Of a DNA stretch of 32,000 bases, positions 1 through 26,085 are shown piece by piece. The stretch's first letter is position 1. Each line of letters opens with the position of its first letter. The notes beneath the pieces were generated by a model, which was not told the DNA's origin, ran no database searches, and saw only the letters and a program-made list of their open reading frames with translations. The position numbers and the translations under genes are program-made. Source of the DNA: an archaeon GW2011_AR10 (lineage in GTDB: Archaea; Iainarchaeota; Iainarchaeia; Iainarchaeales; GW2011-AR10); the NCBI GenBank assembly GCA_000830275.1, contig CP010424.1:1080001-1112000 (forward strand), in the 5' to 3' direction.

Positions 1-240
1 GTCAGCTGAAACGGTTGAATGCCATTTCCTGTGAAATGCAGATTCCTGCTTTGATTCCTCTGCGTTAACTTTTAACAGCACGATTCTGCCGGAGCAGCTG
101 CTTGAAGTGAAAAACTGCTTGGTTGAAGCAATGAATCGGCATAGGGAAACCAGTTGGGGGTCCATTTTTCCGTTTATGGCAGCGTCCTCAAATGTTTTTT
201 TGTGGTGTTCTTTCACCATTTCGAACCTTTTTTCAAGCAT
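1..240 (-). CDS. taw3: tRNA wyosine-derivative methyltransferase Taw3/TYW3; N-terminal 80 aa only, gene runs off the window start
   Basis: Hand translation of the minus strand from ATG at 240-238 gives MLEKRFEMVKEHHKKTFEDAAINGKMDPQLVSLCRFIASTKQFFTSSSCSGRIVLLKVNAEESKQESAFHRKWHSTVSAD. The FFT(S/T)SSC(S/A)GRI block is the TYW3/Taw3 family signature. The frame stays open to position 1. Not in the supplied ORF track. Confidence 0.75.
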   Translation of the reverse strand, partial: MLEKRFEMVKEHHKKTFEDAAINGKMDPQLVSLCRFIASTKQFFTSSSCSGRIVLLKVNAEESKQESAFHRKWHSTVSAD

Positions 241-312
241 GCGGCCAACTCATTATGTAGAACTTACTACATTAAATTTTTAATCCTCTTCCAGGGAAAT
301 ATTTTAGATATA

Positions 313-1119
313 ATGTTAAAAAAGCCTTTATTTTTGCTCGCGCTCTTGGTTCTTTTTCCGCTTGCTTTAGCCGATGTACTTATGATTTCGCCGTTTGAGA
401 AAACGCTTTCGGTTGGTGATGTGGTTGAACTTGGCTCAATCGCTCCAGGCGAATCCTTTGAACTGATATTCTCTGATGAAAGCCTTTTGGGGCAGGAAAT
501 TATGTGGAGCAAGGCTTCAGTGAAGCAGTCTTCGCTTCCTGCAGCATGGGCTGCCATTGACTCGGAGGAAGGAAAGAAAAGACTTGTTGTTTTGGTTTCA
601 GTGCCTGCAGCAGCAAAACCAAATGTTTACCAGTTTAAAGTGGCTCTATCCAACGATGACTTTCAACTCAGCGAGGAAATAACAGCCAAAATAGATGTAA
701 AGAAGGGCCTTATCAAAGCAGTAATTGACGAGGCAGAGCTAAACCAAAGCCCGATGGTAAACGAGAAAGTTAAGTTCAACATTGTTCTAACAAACTCCTC
801 AATTTCTGATCACAGGGTAAAGGTCAAGTCAACACTGCCTTTCAACTGGTTCGAGGAAAAAGAATTCATTGTGCCGGCAAAGCAGGTTGTAGAACAGCAA
901 CTGTTAGTGGCCCCAAGGGTTTTCGGCAGAAAGGCATTCTCGTTTTCTGTGGTTTCAGAGCTGAATGGAGAGCACATTTCCTCTTTTGATTCAGTGCTCA
1001 GCGTAAAACCAACGCTTAAGGGAAAGTTTGCTTCTTCTATTTCCGGGTTCCCGTTCTTCACTGTAACGCTGTTGCCTTACCATTTCTTTAACGCATTGTT
1101 CTCCTTGTTTTTTGTTTGA
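313..1119 (+). CDS. Secreted/cell-surface protein with N-terminal signal peptide and C-terminal hydrophobic anchor; function unknown
   Basis: The internal ATG at 313 gives MLKKPLFLLALLVLFPLALADV, a classic signal peptide. The body is beta-rich and the C-terminus (GFPFFTVTLLPYHFFNALFSLFFV) is hydrophobic. The track ORF start at 154 would overlap the divergent taw3 gene. Confidence 0.6.
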   Translation: MLKKPLFLLALLVLFPLALADVLMISPFEKTLSVGDVVELGSIAPGESFELIFSDESLLGQEIMWSKASVKQSSLPAAWAAIDSEEGKKRLVVLVSVPAAAKPNVYQFKVALSNDDFQLSEEITAKIDVKKGLIKAVIDEAELNQSPMVNEKVKFNIVLTNSSISDHRVKVKSTLPFNWFEEKEFIVPAKQVVEQQLLVAPRVFGRKAFSFSVVSELNGEHISSFDSVLSVKPTLKGKFASSISGFPFFTVTLLPYHFFNALFSLFFV

Positions 1120-1139: not shown

Positions 1140-2732
1140 ATGGCAAAGCAGATGCTTGCACTGAACCGGATTCTTTCGGAGGTTAGAGAGGGCAGCATTC
1201 AGTCTCAGTTCCAGCTCAACAAGGTGAAAATCCGGGCAGCCAGAAAGTTCGGGTTAAAGCAACTTCCAACAAACGCTGAAATTATTGCTGAAGCATCAGA
1301 AGAGGACAGGCGCGCCTTTCAGAGAATCCTTTCCAGAAAACCTGTTAGAAGCATTTCAGGCGTAACAGTTGTTGCAGTAATGACAAAGCCTTATGGCTGT
1401 GTTGCCAAATGCATTTACTGCCCTTCCTCTCTTGTGCCAGGCAAAGAAACCCCTAAAAGCTACACTGGCTTTGAGCCTTCAACAAGGCGCGGCATGATGT
1501 TCAACTTCAACCCGTACAGGATTGTCGAGAACCGGCTGAAGCAGTACAGGGAAATAAACAATTTTTCTCCAAAAATTGAGCTCATACTTCAAGGAGGAAC
1601 ATTCACTGCGCTGCCTTTTTCTCATCAAAAATATTTTGTAAAGCGCTGCTTTGATGCGGTCCTCGGGAAAACAACAAGCTCTTTGAGTGAAGCGAAGTCA
1701 CTTGCCGAACACAGCCAAAACCGGGTTGTAGGGTTGACAATCGAAACAAGGCCTGACTGGTGCAAGGAAAAGGAAATAAACCGGATGCTTTCCTATGGCG
1801 TAACCAGGGTTGAGTTAGGGGTGCAAAACCCTGACAATGAAATATACAGGCGCTCAAACAGGGGCCACACAGTTGAGGATGTTGTCGAGTCAACGCAGTT
1901 GCTGAAGGATTCCTCGCTGAAAGTATTATATCATTTAATGCCAGGCTTGCCAGGCTCAACACCTGAAGCTGATTTGAGAAACTTTAGGAAAGTTTTTTCA
2001 GAGCAGGAATTCTTGCCTGACATGGTAAAAATTTATCCCTGCCTTGTAATTGATGGCACACCACTTCACAGGTTATGGGAAAAAGGCTTGTTCGAACCGC
2101 TTTCAACAGAGAAAGCAGCAAAGCTTGTTGCAAGGCTTAAAGAGTTTATTCCAAGGTACGTAAGGGTTATGAGAATACAGCGCGACATTCCAAGTAATCT
2201 GGTTGCAGGCGGGGTAAAGAAAACAAATTTGCGGCAGCTAGTGGAAAAAGAGCTTGAAGCCAAAGGAATAAAGTGCAATTGCATTCGCTGCAGGGAAATC
2301 GGTTTCAAAAACCTAAAGCATAGTGAGGTTGAAGGCCTTGCACCTGAGCTTTTAAGGGAAGACTACAATGCGAGCAAAGGCTCGGAAGTGTTCCTTTCAT
2401 TTGAAGACAAGAAAAGCAATGCGTTGTTTGGATTCTGCAGGTTAAGAATTCCGTTCAAGCCGTTCAGAAAAGAAATCACTCCAAAAACCGCCCTCCTAAG
2501 GGAGCTGCACGTTTACTCCAAGGCACTGGAACTTTCCTTAAAGCCTTCAAATGGAGAGTTCCAGCACAGGGGCTTTGGCCAAAAGCTTGTGTTGGAAGCT
2601 GAGAGAATTGCAAGGGAAGAGTTTGATTGCAACAAGATAGTGGTTATTGCGGGCATCGGCGTGAAGCAATACTACCGCGAAAAAATCGGTTATGCCAATG
2701 AAGGCGTTTATGTTTCGAAATCCCTGCAATAA
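1140..2732 (+). CDS. elp3: Elongator protein 3 homolog (radical SAM plus GNAT acetyltransferase; tRNA U34 modification)
   Basis: 530 aa. Radical-SAM CX3CX2C motif (CVAKCIYC) at nt 1398-1421. Elp3-typical blocks are present: LILQGGTF, ETRPDWC, GVTRVELGVQ, and a C-terminal GNAT block QHRGFGQKL. Confidence 0.95.
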   Translation: MAKQMLALNRILSEVREGSIQSQFQLNKVKIRAARKFGLKQLPTNAEIIAEASEEDRRAFQRILSRKPVRSISGVTVVAVMTKPYGCVAKCIYCPSSLVPGKETPKSYTGFEPSTRRGMMFNFNPYRIVENRLKQYREINNFSPKIELILQGGTFTALPFSHQKYFVKRCFDAVLGKTTSSLSEAKSLAEHSQNRVVGLTIETRPDWCKEKEINRMLSYGVTRVELGVQNPDNEIYRRSNRGHTVEDVVESTQLLKDSSLKVLYHLMPGLPGSTPEADLRNFRKVFSEQEFLPDMVKIYPCLVIDGTPLHRLWEKGLFEPLSTEKAAKLVARLKEFIPRYVRVMRIQRDIPSNLVAGGVKKTNLRQLVEKELEAKGIKCNCIRCREIGFKNLKHSEVEGLAPELLREDYNASKGSEVFLSFEDKKSNALFGFCRLRIPFKPFRKEITPKTALLRELHVYSKALELSLKPSNGEFQHRGFGQKLVLEAERIAREEFDCNKIVVIAGIGVKQYYREKIGYANEGVYVSKSLQ

Positions 2733-2772: not shown

Positions 2773-3075
2773 ATGAACCCAAAAGAAGAATTTATACGGT
2801 TTGTTCAGGATAACCCCTCTTACTACTATATTGTGCAGTCAGGGCTTTTTCTGGAGCTCTTAAACTTCATTTGCTCTGCCGCAAAAAACACTACTGACAT
2901 TTACTCGCATTTTGCCGGCATTGAAAACTCTGACGTTGAAGAAATGCTGCAGGTGTTGCTGGCAGCCAAGCTTATTTCTAGGGCCAGGGGTTCAGACAGG
3001 GAAATATATTACTGTACGGATGCAGCCAGAACCCTCATAGAAAAATACAATGCAGCCAAAAAGTTTATGGGTTGA
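2773..3075 (+). CDS. Small hypothetical protein, possibly winged-helix DNA-binding
   Basis: 100-aa ORF with ATG start. The helix-rich pattern (TDIYSHFAGIENSDVEEMLQVLLAAKLISR...IYYCTD) resembles a wHTH; this is a motif-level impression only. Confidence 0.5.
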   Translation: MNPKEEFIRFVQDNPSYYYIVQSGLFLELLNFICSAAKNTTDIYSHFAGIENSDVEEMLQVLLAAKLISRARGSDREIYYCTDAARTLIEKYNAAKKFMG

Positions 3076-3095
3076 TAGGCTAATTTCAATCAGGT

Positions 3096-3119
3096 AATTC
3101 CACTGTTTTCAAACAGTGG
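3096..3119. repeat. Perfect 9+9 palindrome CCACTGTTT-TC-AAACAGTGG (3100-3119), core of an element of about 60 nt repeated in inverted orientation at 24715-24775
   Basis: Read directly. GGTAATTCCACTGTTTTCAAACAGTGGTTAGGT here matches GGCAATTCCACTGTTTTGAAACAGTGGTTTAGT on the reverse complement of 24726-24758. It lies about 35 nt upstream of a TATA-like box (tttataat, 3152-3159) and about 75 nt upstream of the ATG at 3185. Confidence 0.8.
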
Positions 3120-3184
3120 TTAGGTAAAATTGCCCAATATATACTATATACTTTATAATGATATAAGGTGTAGAAGAGAATCTT

Positions 3185-3532
3185 ATGGCTAAATCGTTTA
3201 TGGCTACCCTGGGGGTTGGAAAAGGGACCTGGGGCCACGTCGCAAGGCTTATTACTGAAGAGCAATTCAAAAAGATTGTCCTAATTTCAACAGAGTGGGG
3301 TAAAGAGAATTTCGCCCCCCAAAAGGAATGCGACTGGGTTATTGTAAACAATAGGGCTGGATTTGAGGTAATAAAAGATGAAATCAAGGGAAAGCTGCCT
3401 GACGGGGAAATATGCGTTTCACTAGTCAGCGGTTCAGGCAAAGAGCATATGGCACTGTTGGCAGCCTTAAAGGAATCAAACAAACCATTTCAAGTGGTAA
3501 CTTTAACCGGTAACGGAGTAAAGTACTACTGA
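3185..3532 (+). CDS. Small Rossmann-like protein, candidate stand-alone CARF-like ligand-sensing domain (hypothetical)
   Basis: 115 aa. It shows an alternating beta/alpha pattern. An N-terminal strand plus Gly/Thr loop (FMATLGVGKGTWG) and a later VSLVSGSGKEHMALLAALK resemble the two CARF signature regions (hhhxxGxS/T and xTGGTKxMxxA). Its stop at 3530-3532 abuts the next gene. Confidence 0.45.
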   Translation: MAKSFMATLGVGKGTWGHVARLITEEQFKKIVLISTEWGKENFAPQKECDWVIVNNRAGFEVIKDEIKGKLPDGEICVSLVSGSGKEHMALLAALKESNKPFQVVTLTGNGVKYY

Positions 3533-3542
3533 AGTGAGCCTG

Positions 3543-3911
3543 ATGGCAGACATTTTTCTTCCCTTAGCAGTTTTGGTAATTCTAATCCTGGCAGTGCTTG
3601 TTTTAGTGCTTTTCAGGCAGAACCATTTTCTCCGCCAGCAAATTGAGGGACTGGTTTTTCAGAAAACGAGCCAGTCAGTAAAGTACGGGAAGCTCACAGA
3701 GCAGTTCATTCCCTTCACGCAGGATTTTCCTTTTGACGTGCAGCAGTTCCGCTTTATTGGAAACCCGATTGATGGAATAGTGTTTGACGAGGACAGCATA
3801 TATTTTTGTGAATTCAAGACCGCGTCCTCACAGCTTAATGCAAGGCAGAAGAAAGTAAAAGAGCTTGTTGAAGAAAAGAAGGTTAAGTGGTTCGAGTTCA
3901 GGCTCCGTTAA
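3543..3911 (+). CDS. Membrane-anchored Holliday-junction-resolvase-like PD-(D/E)xK endonuclease (COG4741-like)
   Basis: N-terminal TM helix (IFLPLAVLVILILAVLVLVLF) followed by basic residues, which predicts a cytoplasmic C-domain. The C-terminal block GNPIDGIVFDEDSIYFCEFKTASSQLNARQKKVKELV carries a D...ExK nuclease motif. The start could instead be GTG at 3534, 1 nt after the upstream stop. Confidence 0.7.
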   Translation: MADIFLPLAVLVILILAVLVLVLFRQNHFLRQQIEGLVFQKTSQSVKYGKLTEQFIPFTQDFPFDVQQFRFIGNPIDGIVFDEDSIYFCEFKTASSQLNARQKKVKELVEEKKVKWFEFRLR

Positions 3912-3919
3912 GGCTGCTG

Positions 3920-4963
3920 CTACCATCTCACTGCGTATCGTAGCAGTGCAGCAACCCCGCCTATGCCCTTAAGCTTTCTGCCGGCATCGTTTTTTACTGA
4001 AACAATATGGATTTCTCCGTTGAGCTTTTCAGCCCTTTCAAGAAGCTCCTCTGCTTTTTTCCTGTTGGAGAGCAGAAACTCGTCGCTTACAAGCAAAGCC
4101 GAAATTGCCCCTGAATCAATTGCGTTCTCCGTTTCTTTCAGGCTTGCTGCTGCAAGGCCTTTTCCTTTTCCAAGCTCCTCGAAAACCCTTTCCACTAGTT
4201 TGGTTTCTTTTGCAAGCTGTGTTTCCTCCACAATTCTCTCCAAAATGCCTGACTTCAGCAGCTCGTTCAAACCACTTATTCCCACTGAATTGATTTGCTC
4301 AAAGAAAGCATTAAGCTTAATTCCTTTTTCTTCCAAGTATTTTTCCAGATTGTTTTTTGTGAAGCCCGGCCCAGCAAAAACAATTTTTTCAGGCTTGATT
4401 TCTTCAATCTTGCTTATAATTTTCTCAAAGTAGTGGTTTTCTTTTTCCTCGTCCTTAAACCGTTTTCCATGCTTTCCTGCGATCAGCCTTCCTCTAGGCT
4501 CAAAATCAAACTCTTTCAGCAAAGCGAATTCTGCTTCTTCGTCATCCAACACTACTAGAAGCGTTTTAACTCTTCCTGCAGCGCGCTTTGCTTTATGGAG
4601 TCTTTCAATCTGGTAGTTCTTCAACGCTTTTTTTTTCACTGTTATTTCCTTTCCCGGCACAACTTCTAGTGCGTGATGTGATTTAAGCTCCACATACTCT
4701 TCCGGTTTTCCTGTCATAACCACTCCAAGCACTCTGAGGTTTCCAGAGCTTTCATGGAATTCAATCCTTTCAGCGTCCAATTCCACAAAAATGTTTTCCT
4801 TTGAGGCCTTCAAGCCTTCTTCCTTTGGCTTTACTTTTCTTTCAGCCTTGCCGCTGACCACATCATGTTCTTCAATTAACCTTTCAAGGTGCCACAAATC
4901 ATCCAGGTTGTCTGGCACAACTTTGAAGGAATTATTCTTTTGGTCAATTTTAAGGATTCGCAT
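3920..4963 (-). CDS. pelA: Pelota/Dom34 ribosome-rescue factor
   Basis: 347 aa. The N-terminus MRILKIDQKNNSFKVVPDNLDDLWHLERLI is the canonical Pelota N-domain. An eRF1-like central and C-terminal region follows (GPGFTK, GGVAALLRY). Confidence 0.95.
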   Translation of the reverse strand: MRILKIDQKNNSFKVVPDNLDDLWHLERLIEEHDVVSGKAERKVKPKEEGLKASKENIFVELDAERIEFHESSGNLRVLGVVMTGKPEEYVELKSHHALEVVPGKEITVKKKALKNYQIERLHKAKRAAGRVKTLLVVLDDEEAEFALLKEFDFEPRGRLIAGKHGKRFKDEEKENHYFEKIISKIEEIKPEKIVFAGPGFTKNNLEKYLEEKGIKLNAFFEQINSVGISGLNELLKSGILERIVEETQLAKETKLVERVFEELGKGKGLAAASLKETENAIDSGAISALLVSDEFLLSNRKKAEELLERAEKLNGEIHIVSVKNDAGRKLKGIGGVAALLRYAVRW

Positions 4964-6645: not shown

Positions 6646-7476
6646 ATGCCTGACTTCATTAAGGTGCTGCAAGACATGGAAGCGTTGAACCGCTTTAAAG
6701 CCGCAATTTCAAGGCAGCACTCTCATGGAAAATTAAAGGCCGCATTCATTTCCTCGGTAAAAGAAAACACGTCCGGCCTAAAAAAAGTGGCAGTGCTTTT
6801 TTCTGGCGGAGTTGACTCCGCCTTGGTTGCAAAAGCAGTCAGCGAAGAAGTTAAAGAAACAGTTCTTTTTTGCTCTGGAACAAGTACGGCACCAGATTTA
6901 AACGATGCAGAAAAAGCGGCAAAGCAGCTTAACCTGCCTTTAGTGAAAATAATTGTTAAAGAAAAAGAATTGCCTTCTCTCATCAATGAGTCAAAAAAAA
7001 TCATTAATTCCAATGCTGTTCTCCAGCTTCAGATTGCCGTGCCGGAACTGGCTTCAATGCAGGAAGCGAAAAGGCAGGGCTTTGAGTTTGTTTTCTGCGG
7101 TCAAGGGAGTGATGAGTTGTTCTGCGGCTACAATTCTTTCAGGAAAGTGCTGGCCGAAAAAGGGTTTGACGGAGTTCAAGAGGAAATCTGGAACAAGCTC
7201 GAGAATTTGTGGGAGCACGACCTGAAAAGGGATTTGTCAATAGCAGAGCACTTTAAACTGAAGTTAAAGGCACCGTTCTTATACTATGATTTCGCTTTGC
7301 AGGCAATGGCTTTTCCCTCTGAAACAAAAATTTTTTCACCAGAAGACGAGCTGCGAAAGCACCCAATAAGGCAGCTAGCCAAAGAGCTGGGCCTGCCTGC
7401 ATCAATTTACGCTAAAAGAAAAAAAGCAATACAGTATGGCTCTGGCATTGCAAGTAAAGTTAGTGGGCTGATTTAA
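6646..7476 (+). CDS. PP-loop ATP pyrophosphatase related to the asparagine synthetase B C-terminal (synthetase) domain; no glutaminase domain
   Basis: 276 aa. It has the SGGVDS PP-loop (VLFSGGVDSALVA) and an AsnB-like QGSDELFCGY motif. There is no N-terminal Ntn glutaminase region. Confidence 0.8.
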   Translation: MPDFIKVLQDMEALNRFKAAISRQHSHGKLKAAFISSVKENTSGLKKVAVLFSGGVDSALVAKAVSEEVKETVLFCSGTSTAPDLNDAEKAAKQLNLPLVKIIVKEKELPSLINESKKIINSNAVLQLQIAVPELASMQEAKRQGFEFVFCGQGSDELFCGYNSFRKVLAEKGFDGVQEEIWNKLENLWEHDLKRDLSIAEHFKLKLKAPFLYYDFALQAMAFPSETKIFSPEDELRKHPIRQLAKELGLPASIYAKRKKAIQYGSGIASKVSGLI

Positions 7477-17270: not shown

Positions 17271-18434
17271 TCACACCCTCGGTTGGACAAATTTCAGGTA
17301 AACAAGCAAAAGCGCAATAACAAGCGGCATTATCAGCGCGTAAAAGATTATTATAAACTGTGGAGTAAGCTGGAATGCCTGTGAAAAGTTTACTCCTAAT
17401 GGTGCATTGGTTACTGCGCCAATTATTGCTACAAAAACAGGCAGAACAATTGCACCGAAAATGAATATTACCCCAAAAAAATTCATTTTTTCCGCGAAGT
17501 CCCTTATCTTCATTCTCAGCTCGAATGAAACGTCCTCAGCGATTTCCCCCATAACGTTTGAAAGGTTGCCGCCGGTTTTAAGCGCCCTGATGACGTGGAA
17601 CAAGGCGCTCCTCAGCGCTCTTGACTGGGTTCTCAGCGCGAAGTGCCTTAACGCGTCTTTAGTGTCAGTGCCCTCCTCTATCTCATTAATTGTTCTTGAA
17701 AACTCGTCTGATAAAACCCCGTAATCTGACTGCGCTATTGCCTGCAGCGCTTTGTAGAGGCCTATTCCTGCCTTTAATTCTGTTGCCATGTGCCTTAATG
17801 CGAAAGGAAGTTCAACACTCATTTCGTCGCCTCTTCTTTGAGCAATTGTCTTGGGTATAATCATCACAAGTATGAGCGTAATGAAGAAGAACAGGATTCC
17901 AATCAACAGCGCGCTCCAGATGGGCCATGCCCATAAAAACGAGACTATTGCCCCTATGACCATTCCAAAAATCAGGCCTATTGCGGCTGAAGCAACGCTT
18001 AATGCAAGGTATTGCTGCGCTGAAAACTTCATGTTTGCGCTGTAAAGGTAGTATGCTAACTCTTTTGCTATTGGAAACCTCCTGAGGTTTCGGGTTAGTG
18101 GCTTGAATAGGAACTGGAATGAGAGGTAAAAGTTTCCAAGCTGCCTTATTATTGGGGATCTAAACTCTTTCAGCTCTTCAACAGGCTGAACGTTTATTTT
18201 TGCTGCTTCCCCTTCCGCTATTATGCCGCGCAGCTCGCTAAGCCTTCCCCCAACTTCTTCAAATTCAATGCCTTGCTCGCGGTACTTTTTCTTCATTTTG
18301 GCGACTATTTTTTCAACCTGCTCCAGGTCAACGGTTTCCGGCTCGGCTAATTCATCCTTTCCAGGGGCTTTTATGTCTGCCTTCTTGCTCTCAATTTTTT
18401 TCCTTAAGTCATCAATTGAAGGCACGCTTTCCAC
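17271..18434 (-). CDS. Type II secretion system F-domain membrane protein (TadB/FlaJ-half-like pilus platform protein)
   Basis: 387 aa. The T2SS-F-like block is LPFALRHMATELKAGIGLYKALQAIAQSDYGVLSDEF plus TM segments. The start is GTG and overlaps the ATPase stop region. Confidence 0.8.
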   Translation of the reverse strand: MESVPSIDDLRKKIESKKADIKAPGKDELAEPETVDLEQVEKIVAKMKKKYREQGIEFEEVGGRLSELRGIIAEGEAAKINVQPVEELKEFRSPIIRQLGNFYLSFQFLFKPLTRNLRRFPIAKELAYYLYSANMKFSAQQYLALSVASAAIGLIFGMVIGAIVSFLWAWPIWSALLIGILFFFITLILVMIIPKTIAQRRGDEMSVELPFALRHMATELKAGIGLYKALQAIAQSDYGVLSDEFSRTINEIEEGTDTKDALRHFALRTQSRALRSALFHVIRALKTGGNLSNVMGEIAEDVSFELRMKIRDFAEKMNFFGVIFIFGAIVLPVFVAIIGAVTNAPLGVNFSQAFQLTPQFIIIFYALIMPLVIALLLVYLKFVQPRV

Positions 18435-21400
18435 CCCTGCTCAGCAGGTATTTTTCGCATTCAGTTGAAACCCTGTTTATGTCCCTTACATCAGTTTCAA
18501 CCAACTTCTTTAACACTTTTTCCCTTTCCTTAATTTCCGCTTCAATCTGTTTTCTTTGCATTCCTGTAAACCTTTCAAGCACTTTGAGGTAATTAACTGG
18601 CGCACTTGTTCTCTTTAAACTGTCCGTTGCGGCATCATACTCGAATATTGCCTGGGTTTTTGTTTTTCCTTCAAGCACGCCGTATACCTCAGAAATTTCT
18701 GTAATCCTCCTGATAGTACCCTTCTTTTTGTCGTGTAGCCTGTGCTCAACAATTATGAAGTCAAGGCCGCTCATCATTATTTCCGGCACGTTCATCGGGG
18801 GAGAAGTAATCCTTACAATTGTTTCCTCCGGCGAATTAGCGTGAACTGTGCCAAGGCAGTTTGAAACAAATAGGCCGTTTGCAATGTAATTGTGGTTGTC
18901 TTTTACAGTCAAGTCATACATATAACCATTGAACTCTTCTTCTTCAATTTTCACAATTTCCTCAAATCGGAAATCTGAATTGACTAGCATTAAAACCTCT
19001 TTGCCCATTGAAGTGTTAGCGGTAATATTTGCGATTTTTTCTAGCTGGTTTCTTGAAGGGCTTCTTTTATTTGTTTCATATGCCTCAATGGTTGACCTTG
19101 TCTGCGTTCCCATTAATGAAGCCAGTTCTGTTTGCGTCATTGAAGCATCATTTCTTGCTTTTCTAATCAGTGCAGAAATTTTTGGGAACAAATCTTTTGC
19201 ATTTTTTGAACTTAAAATTAATTTTTCAAGTTTTTTACTTTTTTCAGCATGCCCAAATCCTATTTTGTTTGCAAATTTTTCTAAATTGTCCTTTCCATAA
19301 ATTGATACCCTATAATATGGCCCAATTTTTCCTTTTCCGTCCCTTTCTTGGGTGTTTAGCGATGAATGAATGCCAAATCTTTGAATTATCATTGGAAGCT
19401 TTCTGGCTATCCTGGGGTTGGAGGTTGAAAACTGAATTGATTGAGAGTGAAGATTTACGTGAGCATCTGCATCAAATAAGCCCCTGATAAGTTTTCCAAG
19501 CCCTGATTGGCTCGCGGTCAAAACTTTTTTATTTAATTCAAAAATTTTTGTCTTGTTTCCAAGAGGGATGTCATATTCGTTTACGATTTTTTTGACCAAT
19601 TTTTTGTCATAAACATTTACTCTTGAAAAGCCACCGAAATCTTTGATTGAAATCTTATTTTTTGTAACTTCCCCAATTCCCCTTTCAAAACTTTGTATAA
19701 GGGACGGTTCTTTGTTAACAAACTGGATTCCTTCGCTGTGGATGTGCCCGTCTCCGTAAATTAAACCCATAAGATACGGTTTAATTATTTCTTCACTTGC
19801 ATTAATTGGAATTTGCTTTGGAAACGCAATAAAGTCCCCTTTTTTTGCTTCTTCTGCATTTATTTCCTGAATGCCATTGTTTATTCTGTAAATGGGGTGG
19901 TCTTCAGTTAACCTAATTTCTTTGCCTGACTTGGTTTTAATTCTTCTAATTTTTTGTCTTGCATTTTTTCTCCAAACCCTTATTACTGGGTTATCCTCAA
20001 TTTTAAACGTTTTTTTGTTGAAGCTTGGGACAAATATTTCCCCCTTAATATCAACAAATTCAAAGTCCCCTTCTTTTAAGGGATTTTTTTCCATGAATTT
20101 ATTTTCAACAAAATTTCCTATTTCCTCAATGTTGCCATTAGAAAACTGAATTAATGTATCGCCTGTTGTTGCACCATCATGGCCCGTATTCATTGCAGTG
20201 AACAATGAGAATGCCTCATCGTGCCTTATTTCTCCTACAATTATCCTGTCAGGCCTCATCCTCAAAGAGTTCTTGGTTAAAATGTCAAGGCTTATTTCTC
20301 CTGTTCCTTCAATGCCCGGCGGCCTTCCCTCAAACCTTATCCAGTGCTTGAGCGGAAGATTCAATTCAGCAGTGTCTTCGATTGAAATAATTCTCTCGTG
20401 CCTTGGAATAAATGATGCCAGCACGTTCAATGTTGTTGTTTTGCCGCTTCCAGTGCCGCCTGAAATGACAATGTTTGCAGGCTTCACTCCCATGCCTTCA
20501 ACGCAAGCCCACAGAAAAGCTGAGGCTTCCAGTGTCACAGTGTTCATTTTAATCAAATCAATCATGGAGAAAGGGTCTCCCCTAAATTTCCTGATAGTTA
20601 AAGTTGCACCGCTGACTGAAGCCGGAGGGATTGTTGCGTTGACCCTGCTGCCGTCAGGCAGCCTTGCATCCAGAAGAGGAGCCGAAATGTCAATCCTTCT
20701 TCCCACTTGCCGTGCAATCCTGTTAACCAAGTCAATTATTTCTTGGTCAGAGAAAAACTCAATGTTTGTTGTCATCATCTCATACTGCCTGTGGAAAACG
20801 TAAACAGGCTGGCCTTGGCCGATAACCATTATTTCCTCAAGTTTGTCGTCGTTAACCAGCGGGTCAATCATGCCGTAGCCAACCATTTCTCTTACAACTG
20901 CATCAGCGTAAAAGTCAAACCTTGAGGCAGGAATGTTTAATTCAGGCGAGCTGCGTATTATCTCCATTATTCGCTGATAGTAAACGTTTCTTTTCTGCTC
21001 CGGGTCCCTGATTTTGTAAGGAGTGATGCTGATAATTCTTGTTGCCGCTTCCTTTATGGTGTTAATGATTGTTTTCTCTGTGCCAGCGGAGCGCGGCACC
21101 GGAGTCCAATAGTATAGCAGGGGCTCCCCCTCAACCCTGTAAATTTTTATGTTCCCATAAGAGTCTATTTCCTCCTTTTCTGCCTGCTCCATTTGTTTTT
21201 CGGTTTTGGATTTGGCTGTCTTAACTGGAAGGCGCTGTTCAGTTGCAGGGGCAACTTCCAAAGCCTCTTGTTCTGTTTCCTTAACTGCTTCGGGTTTTTT
21301 TCTGGAGCTCGGTTCCTTTACTGATTCCCTTGGAATAACAATTTTTGTAAAAATTTTTGCAGGCTTAAACGGTTCTATTTCAGCAGGGGCTGCTTTGCGT

Positions 21401-21567
21401 TGAGCTTCTCCCTCCGGCATCCTTTTGAGGGCCTCAATGATTTTCTGCTTCTTTTGTTCCTTCTCTTCCTCGGCTTTTGAGTCAGCAACGCCTGCCTTTT
21501 TCTTCTTCATTTGCTCAATCAAGTCACCCATATAGCTAGGCATGGCTAATCCATTATGAAGACGCAT
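18412..21567 (-). CDS. FlaI/VirB11/TadA-family type IV filament assembly ATPase, interrupted by an intein (613-aa extein)
   Basis: Walker A GGTGSGKTT lies at nt 20434-20460. Walker B and Asp box read RMRPDRIIVGEIR. The His box NTGHDG is split from CLGTVHANS by 438 aa. There is a K/E-rich N-terminal extension of about 140 aa. A TATA-like GTTTAAATAA (21573-21582) sits only 6 nt from the first ATG, so the true start may be the ATG at 21543 (MPSYMGD). Confidence 0.9.
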   Translation of the reverse strand: MRLHNGLAMPSYMGDLIEQMKKKKAGVADSKAEEEKEQKKQKIIEALKRMPEGEAQRKAAPAEIEPFKPAKIFTKIVIPRESVKEPSSRKKPEAVKETEQEALEVAPATEQRLPVKTAKSKTEKQMEQAEKEEIDSYGNIKIYRVEGEPLLYYWTPVPRSAGTEKTIINTIKEAATRIISITPYKIRDPEQKRNVYYQRIMEIIRSSPELNIPASRFDFYADAVVREMVGYGMIDPLVNDDKLEEIMVIGQGQPVYVFHRQYEMMTTNIEFFSDQEIIDLVNRIARQVGRRIDISAPLLDARLPDGSRVNATIPPASVSGATLTIRKFRGDPFSMIDLIKMNTVTLEASAFLWACVEGMGVKPANIVISGGTGSGKTTTLNVLASFIPRHERIISIEDTAELNLPLKHWIRFEGRPPGIEGTGEISLDILTKNSLRMRPDRIIVGEIRHDEAFSLFTAMNTGHDGATTGDTLIQFSNGNIEEIGNFVENKFMEKNPLKEGDFEFVDIKGEIFVPSFNKKTFKIEDNPVIRVWRKNARQKIRRIKTKSGKEIRLTEDHPIYRINNGIQEINAEEAKKGDFIAFPKQIPINASEEIIKPYLMGLIYGDGHIHSEGIQFVNKEPSLIQSFERGIGEVTKNKISIKDFGGFSRVNVYDKKLVKKIVNEYDIPLGNKTKIFELNKKVLTASQSGLGKLIRGLFDADAHVNLHSQSIQFSTSNPRIARKLPMIIQRFGIHSSLNTQERDGKGKIGPYYRVSIYGKDNLEKFANKIGFGHAEKSKKLEKLILSSKNAKDLFPKISALIRKARNDASMTQTELASLMGTQTRSTIEAYETNKRSPSRNQLEKIANITANTSMGKEVLMLVNSDFRFEEIVKIEEEEFNGYMYDLTVKDNHNYIANGLFVSNCLGTVHANSPEETIVRITSPPMNVPEIMMSGLDFIIVEHRLHDKKKGTIRRITEISEVYGVLEGKTKTQAIFEYDAATDSLKRTSAPVNYLKVLERFTGMQRKQIEAEIKEREKVLKKLVETDVRDINRVSTECEKYLLSRGGKRAFN
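18859..20172 (-). mobile_element. 438-aa intein with LAGLIDADG homing-endonuclease domain and an XRE-type HTH; starts with Ala1, ends Ser-Asn, +1 Cys
   Basis: Junctions were read from the DNA: ...AMNTGHDG|ATTGDTLIQFSNG... and ...HNYIANGLFVSN|CLGTVHANS. Block A is xxxGDTLI and block B is RLTEDHP. The LAGLIDADG motifs are YLMGLIYGDGHI and LIRGLFDADAHV. Blocks F and G are YMYDLTVKDNHNYIANGLFVSN. Confidence 0.85.
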
Positions 21568-24649: not shown

Positions 24650-24714
24650 AAAAACCACCGACTGAAGTCGGTGGCATGTTTTGATGCTTCTAATAGAAGC
24701 AAGTGGTTTTTGAC
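24650..24714. other. Nested stem-loop cluster between thrS and nreA
   Basis: GTCAAAAACCAC (24650-24661) pairs with GTGGTTTTTGAC (24703-24714). This encloses CCACCGAC-tgaa-GTCGGTGG and GCTTCT-aat-AGAAGC hairpins. All were read directly. Confidence 0.5.
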
Positions 24715-24732
24715 AGTAGCAATTCCACTAAA

Positions 24733-24752
24733 CCACTGTTTCAAAACAGTGG
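24733..24752. repeat. Perfect 9+9 palindrome CCACTGTTT-CA-AAACAGTGG; second copy of the 3100-3119 element in inverted orientation
   Basis: The 9-bp arms are identical to those at 3100-3119. About 20 nt on each flank is also similar after reverse-complementing. AATTCCAC (24721-24728) can alternatively pair with GTGGAATT (24749-24756). Confidence 0.8.
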
Positions 24753-24825
24753 AATTGCCTGATTTGAATACCGCCATACACTGCCATATAACATCAATTA
24801 ATTGTTTTCTTTAATAATACTTTAT

Positions 24826-26085
24826 ATGAAGGGACCGCATGGAAAGGTCACTCCGTCTCCTGAGGTTTGCGTTAAGTGCAAGGGCCGCCTTTGGTGCGGG
24901 CCAAACTGCTTCATTCTTGATAGGTTCGAGAAAAAGCAGAGCGCACTAAAATCAATGGAGGGCAGGGAACTGCATGGAAAAACCCCTCCAGGCGTTTTTG
25001 TTTCATGGTATGGTTACCCAAAAATAAACTTTTCCCCAATGGCTCCTGCCCTTCCAAGCGAAGATTCCTGGATGACTGATGACACAGACAAATGGTTCGG
25101 CTTGCATGCAGAAAAAATAATTTCTTTCAGGGAAAACCTTGTGAGGGGCAGTATGCAGCTCAAGGCAAAGCAGGCTTCAAACCCATCATATGCATTGCTT
25201 GACGTGCAGGAAACACTTATGGCAAAAAAGCCGGTGGAAATTGAAATGGAGCTAAAGAATGCACCGCACGCAAGGAGCCTCTCGTTTTCCGACTTTCATG
25301 CGCCGATGGGCCCGCAAGCAGAACTCAAAAAATTCACCTTAACAGAGAACCCTTCCGTTAACAGAAGAATTGATTCCCTTGTTTCAGACACTGATGTAAA
25401 AGCAAAAGACGCAATGGTTGAGCTTTATGGGAGCAATGTTGGGGTAAACCAGCTTCACAAGATTTTAAGCGCCGGAATGCTCGGAGTGAAAAAAAACAGG
25501 AAGTTAACCCCAACTAGGTGGTCTATTGTGGCAATTGATAGCAACTTATCAGAGCACTTCATTGAAGAAAGAATAAAGCACTTCCCTCAATTGCAGCAAA
25601 TCCAGTTATTTCACTCAGCGTACCTTGAAAACTACTACTTCATCCTGCTTTTGCCGCGCGAGTGGAGCTTCGAACTGCTTGAGGCATGGATGCCTGGGGC
25701 TTCTTGGGCATTGGAAGCAAAGGAACCGCAGTTCATGGCTGATTACGAATTCTATGATGGAAGAAAGGATTACGCTGAAAACACTGCTGGCGGCTACTAT
25801 GCTGCAAGAATTGCAATTGCAGAGCACCTTCTTGAAAAAAAAAGGCAGGCAACAGCACTGGTTTTCAGGGAGATTGGAGATTCAGGGATTCCAAGCCTTG
25901 GAGTTTGGAAATGCAGGGAAACAGTGCGAGATGCAATGAAAAAGAAGCCGCTCTCATTCAACAGCCTTGGGCTGGCACTAAAGTACGTTGAGTCAAAGCT
26001 TTCAATCCAGTTAAAGTACTGGAAAAAGCACTCACAGATTTTAGACCAAGTGCTCCACCAGAAAAAGCTGTCCGACTTCTCTTAA
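24826..26085 (+). CDS. nreA: Archaeal DNA repair protein NreA (Nre_N/Nre_C family) with C-terminal PIP-like box
   Basis: The ATG at 24826 gives MKGPHGKVTPSPEVCVKCKGRLWCGPNCFILDRF, the Cys-rich Nre N-terminus. About 419 aa. The extreme C-terminus QKKLSDFS fits QxxLxxF of a PCNA-interacting peptide. The track start at 24802 is a TTG. Confidence 0.75.
   Translation: MKGPHGKVTPSPEVCVKCKGRLWCGPNCFILDRFEKKQSALKSMEGRELHGKTPPGVFVSWYGYPKINFSPMAPALPSEDSWMTDDTDKWFGLHAEKIISFRENLVRGSMQLKAKQASNPSYALLDVQETLMAKKPVEIEMELKNAPHARSLSFSDFHAPMGPQAELKKFTLTENPSVNRRIDSLVSDTDVKAKDAMVELYGSNVGVNQLHKILSAGMLGVKKNRKLTPTRWSIVAIDSNLSEHFIEERIKHFPQLQQIQLFHSAYLENYYFILLLPREWSFELLEAWMPGASWALEAKEPQFMADYEFYDGRKDYAENTAGGYYAARIAIAEHLLEKKRQATALVFREIGDSGIPSLGVWKCRETVRDAMKKKPLSFNSLGLALKYVESKLSIQLKYWKKHSQILDQVLHQKKLSDFS

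Follow-up and report, generated by a model that had tools for sequence, protein, structure and literature searches.

Most of what is known of CARF domains concerns the sensing or degradation of the cyclic oligoadenylates (cOA) that CRISPR systems make, and both stand-alone CARF proteins and effectors that combine a CARF domain with a nuclease are already known. Here we describe a small locus of the archaeon GW2011_AR10 (Iainarchaeia), analysed within a stretch of 32,000 nucleotides (GenBank assembly GCA_000830275.1, contig CP010424.1, positions 1,080,001 to 1,112,000 of the forward strand) that is called the window throughout. Three short plus-strand genes between those for Elp3 and pelota encode a winged helix-turn-helix (wHTH) protein, a CARF-like protein (CARFl) and a nuclease of the PF10107/COG4741 type with a transmembrane (TM) anchor. 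An earlier note on this DNA, made from the sequence alone, had delineated these three open reading frames (ORFs), and all are present, as are the peptides quoted from their translations (MATLGVGKGTWG, LVSGSGKEHMALLAAL and DGIVFDEDSIYFCEFKT); since each has many homologues, they are genes and not chance ORFs. What appears to be new is the combination of a minimal CARF family, core-like conservation of this family in DPANN archaea and Methanofastidiosum, and pairing in trans with a membrane-tethered PF10107 nuclease in one class, with no CRISPR system or cyclase found in the window or the flanks that were examined.

The AlphaFold2 (AF2) model of CARFl (pLDDT 94.4, pTM 0.87) is built of four beta-alpha units and ends in a beta-hairpin, in the order b-a-b-a-b-a-b-a-b-b, with strands at residues 4-8, 30-35, 50-53, 76-79, 102-108 and 111-114, helices between strands 1 to 4, and strands 5 and 6 forming the hairpin. 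CARF domains are defined by a six-stranded Rossmann-like alpha/beta core in which strands 5 and 6 make up a beta-hairpin (PMC4012209), and the model shows both features. When it was compared with the PDB using Foldseek, the first 13 ranks were all occupied by CARF proteins (E 3e-5 to 1.4e-3, TM-scores 0.51-0.69). The best matches were structures of Can2 (8q41, 8bao), and Csa3, Crn1/Sso2081, Csm6 and Cam1 were also found, with Cdn1, Cad1, Csx1-Crn2 and VC1899 lower in the ranking; generic Rossmann proteins outside the CARF group first appear at E 1.5e-3. The resemblance to CARF domains that had been read from the sequence is thus borne out in both topology and fold search, and on the strength of the model we accept the assignment of CARFl to the CARF-type fold.

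With the window protein as query, no Pfam or NCBIfam family was matched, a PADLOC search gave noise without a CARF match, and nothing significant was found among PDB sequences with either the single protein or two profiles. In a PADLOC search with 56 diverse members of the family, CARF, Csx1, Csa3, Csm6 or RtcR families made up about 20 of the 25 listed as most recurrent (best E 1.8e-5); CARF_m11 matches six of the 56 members (best E 1.8e-5) and CARF1 matches five. CARF1 is also matched by consensus sequences, with E 1.2e-4 for the whole family and E 2e-5 for its Woesearchaeal branch, and Pfam Csa3_N is matched by two of the 56 members, at E 0.09 at best. CARFl has 253 close homologues, and the 252 clusters obtained at 50% identity are nearly all stand-alone proteins of 115-120 aa. 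Because no existing model captures these proteins, CARFl represents a new family of the CARF superfamily: previously undescribed, minimal, single-domain and stand-alone, and outside any curated model. Fusions were considered as a clue to function and set aside, the longer members being likely frameshift or assembly chimeras with a neighbouring Cdc6 or ZPR1 gene, or upstream extensions; protein P0201, for example, is a CARFl-Cdc6 chimera that is probably a frameshift or assembly artefact.

The near-invariant positions of the 56 members fall only in two loops, which follow the family patterns LGxGKGTWGH (after strand 1) and SGxGKEHMA (after strand 4). Within the first loop, L9, G10, G12, G14, W16, G17 and H18 are invariant among 34 close homologues, and in a wider set of 14 sequences K13 is invariant and G14 is kept in at least 90%. 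Within the second, G85 is invariant and S82, G83, H88 and A90 are kept in at least 90% of the 56 members, with K86 and E87 invariant in the set of 14. The hallmarks of CARF domains are a polar serine or threonine after strand 1 and a basic lysine or arginine just after strand 4 (PMC4012209), and in CARFl these residues are T15 and K86; the spacing of the motif [DN]x[ST]xxx[RK] is off by one, as CARFl reads N-x-x-S-G-x-G-K. The earlier note had seen in its peptides a resemblance to ligand-binding signatures, and conserved loops are indeed found at the positions of the CARF ligand motifs. In the model, these two Gly/Lys/His-rich segments sit where CARF domains bind nucleotide ligands, and they are putative loops of the phosphate-binding type.

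The protein encoded by the third gene matches the Pfam family Endonuc_Holl (PF10107) with E 2.8e-20 and 73.2 bits against a cut-off of 23.8, aligning only to positions 72-158 of the 159 in the profile, and is a short form of the family. It has 258 close homologues, and the 120 of these that were listed all carry PF10107, measure 111-165 aa (mostly 119-123) and come, where a source is named, from Diapherotrites, a metagenome-assembled genome (MAG) labelled Micrarchaeota and an unclassified archaeon. E56, I79-D80, E93-F94-K95 and Q105 do not vary in 29 homologues. For COG4741 the motif E-(V/I)D-E(V/I)K, an N-terminal hydrophobic helix and the same topology have been predicted (Feder and Bujnicki, 2005; PMC1189080), and the window protein fits this motif except that phenylalanine replaces Val/Ile between E93 and K95. 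The proposal of a TM-anchored COG4741-type PD-(D/E)xK nuclease therefore stands, with family match, anchor and motif all present, and its predicted catalytic residues are intact. All homologues have an acidic N-terminus ahead of the TM helix and arginine or lysine behind it, which by the positive-inside rule argues for a single N-out, C-in anchor and for a nuclease domain that is predicted to face the cytoplasm. The AF2 model of the nuclease is of moderate quality (pLDDT 79.6) and shows a long helix (residues 2-58) followed by a small alpha/beta core. Its best match in Foldseek was VRR_NUC with E 2, and neither Can2 nor Card1 was matched; the fold search thus showed no specific similarity to the nuclease domains of Can1, Can2 and Card1, the effectors that the earlier note had named.

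No CARF partner of PF10107 was found in the literature searched, nor in two bacterial or phage contexts that were inspected. On a Nostoc plasmid the PF10107 gene adjoins a gene for a tyrosine recombinase, and in Flavobacterium phage vB_FspM_immuto_3-5A (locus L145, 9549-9932) it lies directly after NrdF/NrdA and before an EndoG-type DNA/RNA nuclease. The phage setting, with ribonucleotide reductase and an EndoG-type nuclease on either side, hints weakly at nucleic-acid breakdown for salvage.

The linkage of the CARFl and nuclease genes was followed across genomes. In a one-genome-per-species scan, about 570 loci encode CARFl relatives, of which 80 were retained, from Iainarchaeia, Methanofastidiosum/Thermococci, Woesearchaeota/Nanoarchaeota and a few unclassified archaeal MAGs. 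Wherever an Iainarchaeial locus reaches past CARFl (28 loci), the nuclease gene lies downstream on the same strand; it is directly adjacent in 26, and the gap is between -23 and +195 nt in 26 of the 28 and 30 nt or less in about half. The order is kept while Elp3 flips its orientation and other genes insert before pelota. In the window the CARFl stop codon (3530-3532) is 1 nt ahead of a GTG and 10 nt ahead of an ATG, as had been noted earlier; the ATG at 3543 is favoured by the homologues and by public gene calls, giving a gap of 10 nt, and a GTGAG Shine-Dalgarno-like motif precedes it. This spacing of the genes is consistent with a two-gene operon of CARFl and nuclease in Iainarchaeia. No credible fusion of the two proteins was found among the 252 clusters, and in the window the genes are in different frames with a stop codon between them. 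In one Iainarchaeial locus (L004) a HicA/HicB toxin-antitoxin is inserted beside pelota (6813-7258), and the CARFl-nuclease pair is unchanged there, with a 4-nt overlap.

The surroundings of CARFl are those of a housekeeping gene. A scan of the window proteins bears out the earlier statement that neither a cyclase nor CRISPR-Cas is present: no cyclase, Cas protein or recognisable defence system was found in the 32 kb, which otherwise encode Elp3, pelota, ThrRS, RFC, an Nre-like protein, pilus/archaellum genes and similar housekeeping functions. In the 86 loci the recurrent neighbours (Elp3, pelota, ABCE1, TYW3, LigT, Orc1/Cdc6, TFIIB, S8e and ZPR1) are likewise housekeeping genes, and not the CRISPR or defence context typical of CARF proteins. 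When 149 CARFl-neighbour proteins from 80 species were scanned with PADLOC, the 141 matches were mostly to generic domains (AAA+, TatD, helicase, methyltransferase), and the 25 families listed include neither Cas10 nor a cyclase. No relatives of CARFl were found on viral contigs, phages or plasmids. CARFl is a chromosomal gene, widespread in Iainarchaeia, Woesearchaeota/Nanoarchaeota and Methanofastidiosum, and over 22 Iainarchaeial species its mean identity to the window protein is 66.5%, compared with 56.5% for the nuclease, 49.7% for Elp3, 49.5% for pelota and 29.8% for the wHTH protein. The pair thus changes less between species than core translation genes do, and no Iainarchaeial locus fetched by way of CARFl is without it, which is unlike an accessory immune module.

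The reading that we favour, and hold tentatively, is that CARFl binds a nucleotide-type ligand and controls or cooperates with the nuclease at the inner face of the membrane in a housekeeping task. The single N-out, C-in anchor would hold the catalytic domain of the nuclease at the cytoplasmic face; CARFl, probably as a dimer, would bind a phosphate-containing nucleotide or oligonucleotide; and it would either control the membrane nuclease in trans or pass substrate or product to it. The task served would be nucleic-acid turnover or salvage, or the processing of DNA at the membrane, and not accessory defence by CRISPR and cOA, and the wHTH protein would be an optional local regulator.

Several observations weigh against this reading. 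The sequence-level backing for CARF membership is marginal, and searches of Pfam and of PDB sequences gave nothing significant. The two genes are 55-195 nt apart in about ten Iainarchaeial loci and are separated by insertions of 0.6 and 1.6 kb in two others, and strict co-transcription is therefore not universal. A hidden Markov model of the nuclease family (E<=10) found nothing in the 56 CARFl loci outside Iainarchaeia, where CARFl is followed by other genes (Orc1/Cdc6, LarA) or by none, which argues that its core function is independent of the nuclease. The linkage that the earlier note would have looked for in related genomes is accordingly kept in all 28 Iainarchaeial loci but confined to that one class. 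Finally, a mirror-tree comparison of CARFl and nuclease gave r = 0.50, which does not exceed the values for pelota or Elp3, and a partial correlation of 0.23 against 0.20 for the control.

A somewhat unlikely but serious alternative is that only the gene order is inherited: CARFl would have an autonomous housekeeping role, for instance in replication/repair or RNA metabolism, and the PF10107 gene would have been inserted beside it in the Iainarchaeial ancestor and remained uncoupled. The nuclease is missing from all 56 of the non-Iainarchaeial loci, the mirror-tree gives no specific signal of co-evolution, and in two loci of related lineages (L034 and L039) CARFl stands alone on the plus strand in the same Elp3-pelota region. 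Elsewhere it keeps other company. In Woesearchaeota/Nanoarchaeota (L041-L084) 22 of 47 loci have a gene for Orc1/Cdc6 on the same strand, at most 1.8 kb 3' of CARFl, and in 12 of the 47 the two genes are 25-46 nt apart; metallophosphoesterase, TatD, TFIIB, S8e, MTS methyltransferase and ZPR1 are further neighbours in Woesearchaeota. In MAGs of Methanofastidiosum/Thermococci (L031-L037) a tight cluster on one strand holds genes for an aminotransferase, CARFl, a LarA-like racemase, an ArsR-type wHTH protein, a membrane protein and an XPB helicase, and in L032 CARFl shares about 10 nt with the gene before it and is separated by about as many from the gene after it. Against inheritance of order alone, the pair is the most stable gene order of the region over 28 loci despite the variation around Elp3 and pelota, the two genes overlap or lie within 30 nt of each other in about half of the loci, and the numbers of close homologues are nearly equal (253 for CARFl and 258 for the nuclease).

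It is also conceivable, if unlikely, that CARFl is itself an enzyme or a sponge that cleaves or sequesters a cyclic or 2',3'-cyclic-phosphate (oligo)nucleotide and is not an allosteric switch for the nuclease. Its size and architecture are like those of the small single-domain stand-alone CARF ring nucleases, Crn1 (Sso2081) is among its top fold matches, and the conserved K13, T15, K86, E87 and H88 in the pocket loops would suit metal-independent phosphodiester chemistry. The very high conservation across phyla is as expected for an enzyme, and a LigT-type 2H phosphoesterase and tRNA-modification genes recur nearby. However, neither type III CRISPR nor a cyclase was seen around CARFl, and the Crn1-type model CARF7 matches only one of the 56 members, with E 0.004.

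A broader proposal strikes us as quite unlikely, namely that CARFl serves as receptor for a still undescribed housekeeping signal of nucleotide type, in archaea where type III CRISPR is generally missing. The family would then be a branch of CARF signalling outside immunity, perhaps an ancestral one; in Iainarchaeia it would gate a membrane-tethered nuclease that processes DNA at the membrane (for uptake, salvage or entry control), and in Woesearchaeota it would be tied to Orc1/Cdc6. Very doubtful, in turn, is an orphan, split and Can2-like antiviral effector, in which cOA made elsewhere in the genome would bind CARFl and switch on the nuclease against invading or host DNA: Can2 is the best structural match of CARFl, CARF with PD-(D/E)xK is a known effector logic, the genes are in tandem on one strand 10 nt apart in the window and a membrane-proximal cytoplasmic site would suit attack on entering DNA, but the window holds no Cas10, cyclase or defence system, the recurrent neighbours are housekeeping genes, defence genes are patchy where this pair is slower to change than pelota or Elp3 and ever-present in the Iainarchaeial loci fetched, no copies of CARFl were found on viruses or plasmids, and the nuclease is PF10107/YraN-like with no specific match to Can2 or Card1. 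Of the orphan signal-activated nuclease that the earlier note had put forward, the CARF fold, the TM nuclease and the paired order remain, while the housekeeping context, the slow evolution and the restriction of the linkage to one class speak against the whole.

The features of the locus are collected in Table 1. Judging by the TATA-like box, a putative promoter element, CARFl may be transcribed from a promoter of its own into a leaderless or near-leaderless mRNA.

Table 1. Coordinates in the window of the genes and sequence features of the CARFl locus.
Feature	Position	Strand	Remarks
Elp3 gene	1140-2732	+	5' boundary of the trio
wHTH gene, 100 aa	2773-3075	+	upstream of the CARFl gene
Structured palindromic element	3078-3145	+	inner hairpin CCACTGTTT-TC-AAACAGTGG (3100-3119); outer stem GGTAATT/AATTGCC
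TATA-like box TTTATAAT	3152-3159	+	about 26-33 nt before the CARFl ATG; read from the sequence
CARFl gene (stand-alone CARF-like), 115 aa	3185-3532	+	middle gene
Loop after strand 1, L9-G-V-G-K-G-T-W-G-H18	3209-3238	+	between strand 4-8 and helix 13-25 of the model
Loop after strand 4, S82-G-S-G-K-E-H88	3428-3448	+	between strand 76-79 and helix 86-97 of the model
PF10107/COG4741 nuclease gene	3543-3911 (ATG, 122 aa) or 3534-3911 (GTG, 125 aa)	+	
N-terminal TM anchor IFLPLAVLVILILAVLVLVLF	3552-3614	+	21-residue hydrophobic stretch; from sequence and homologue alignment
Predicted catalytic signature E56, I79-D80, E93-F94-K95 (GTG-start numbering)	3699-3818	+	D80 at 3771-3773; EFK at 3810-3818; Q105 downstream
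pelota gene	3920-4963	-	convergent; 3' boundary of the trio

The first gene of the trio encodes a wHTH protein, as had been supposed. Alone, the 100-aa protein gives weak matches (TrmB, E 0.016; the HTH part of PADLOC Csa3, E 8.6e-4), and at the level of the family Pfam HTH_45 is found in 10 of 16 homologues (best E 4e-7) and HxlR in seven. A family model finds a homologue in 17 of the Iainarchaeial loci fetched; the gene has no counterpart in about 40% of these loci or in other lineages, and is an optional, fast-evolving neighbour of CARFl.

The palindromic element had been described as conserved and as preceding the module. It lies inside, between the wHTH and CARFl genes, where its inner hairpin is a perfect 9+9 inverted repeat about 35 nt before the TATA-like box, and the orthologous CARFl loci of other species lack it. 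A second copy is present in the window in the opposite orientation (inner hairpin 24733-24752, copy 24731-24759, element 24707-24774 on the minus strand; chance expectation 0.01), between thrS and an Nre-like gene and about 60-85 nt upstream of the latter, and a metagenome scan found 54 further copies (L090-L143). A role as operator of the module was considered and rejected, given its absence from the CARFl loci of other species and the fact that none of the 54 metagenomic loci encodes a homologue of CARFl, the nuclease or the wHTH protein; the palindrome is not part of the conserved CARFl-nuclease module. About 18 of the metagenomic copies share a TTGAAATC-like 5' flank, a covarying outer stem of 6-9 bp, an invariant inner hairpin CCACTGTTT-NN-AAACAGTGG and a bulge on the 3' side, and in these copies RNAalifold identified four outer-stem pairs with 6-7 double-sided compensatory changes each. 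A search of Rfam with the element gave no match. Eight of the palindrome loci (L096, L097, L101, L124, L125, L129, L131 and L143) encode a protein like TnpB/IS605 OrfB, with the motif ...GVDVG..., and the hairpin is at or near the 3' end of this ORF in six of the eight and upstream of it in L124 and L125. This arrangement suggests that the TnpB-linked hairpin is an IS200/IS605 end or an omega-RNA module, and the element as a whole may be an undescribed structured RNA or a hairpin of the REP/PATE-like or REP/IS200-IS605 type.

Other features of the window stand apart from the module. The Nre-like gene (24802-26085, plus strand) matches Nre_N with E 8e-86 and Nre_C with E 8e-33, and another perfect palindrome, CCACCGACT-GA-AGTCGGTGG, is found at about 24657-24676 in the same intergenic region upstream of it. 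A protein of about 270 aa with an N-terminal hydrophobic segment and no annotated domain (154-1119, plus strand) belongs to a cluster (cluster 6, in L001-L029) that lies directly 5' of Elp3 in 21 loci. A type II/IV secretion-type ATPase of 1051 aa (T2SSE; 18412-21567, minus strand) is split by an intein bearing a LAGLIDADG homing endonuclease and an HTH_3 domain.

Our work has shown that CARFl is more strongly conserved than pelota, occurs in roughly 570 or more species-level archaeal genomes, resides in housekeeping neighbourhoods and was not encountered on mobile elements. DPANN archaea and Methanofastidiosum may therefore have a nucleotide signal or substrate that is yet to be described. 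For the membrane nucleases of PF10107/COG4741, a family so far uncharacterised, CARFl is the first candidate partner; the small size of both proteins should make them easy to produce, which puts ligand screening and reconstitution directly within reach.

The likeness to known systems is partial in each case. Can1, Can2 and Card1, effectors of type III CRISPR that are activated by cyclic tetra-adenylate (cA4), also bring together a CARF-fold sensor and a PD-(D/E)xK nuclease. However, in these proteins both domains are fused and the context is one of CRISPR and cyclase, whereas here they are separate polypeptides, the nuclease is a TM-anchored minimal core of the PF10107 type, neither CRISPR nor cyclase was seen, and CARFl, at about 115 aa and free of inserts, also occurs without the nuclease. 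The CARF-TM effectors (Cam1 and the CARF-TM protein of Panoptes) likewise couple a CARF sensor to an effector located in the membrane; they do so in one membrane-acting protein with Cas10 or mCpol nearby, unlike the present locus, where the membrane nuclease is a separate protein and no cyclase was seen. Csa3 unites CARF and wHTH domains, and Csa3 structures are the second, third and fifth fold matches of CARFl; but in Csa3 the CARF domain is N-terminal and the wHTH domain C-terminal in one protein, whereas here the genes are separate, that for the wHTH protein comes first and is often absent, and its product shares about 30% identity between species. The ring nucleases and sponges Crn1/Sso2081, Csx15, Csx16 and Csx20 are small, single-domain and act in trans on the signalling nucleotide, and CARFl is similarly small and stand-alone; in contrast to these proteins, which are found in or near type III CRISPR loci or on viruses, it is a conserved chromosomal gene among housekeeping genes, without a significant match to their models and with the distinct loops GxGKGTWGH and SGxGKEH. 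The nuclease, for its part, is a clear member of PF10107/COG4741, combining a TM helix, a minimal PD-(D/E)xK core and the E...ID...ExK motif.

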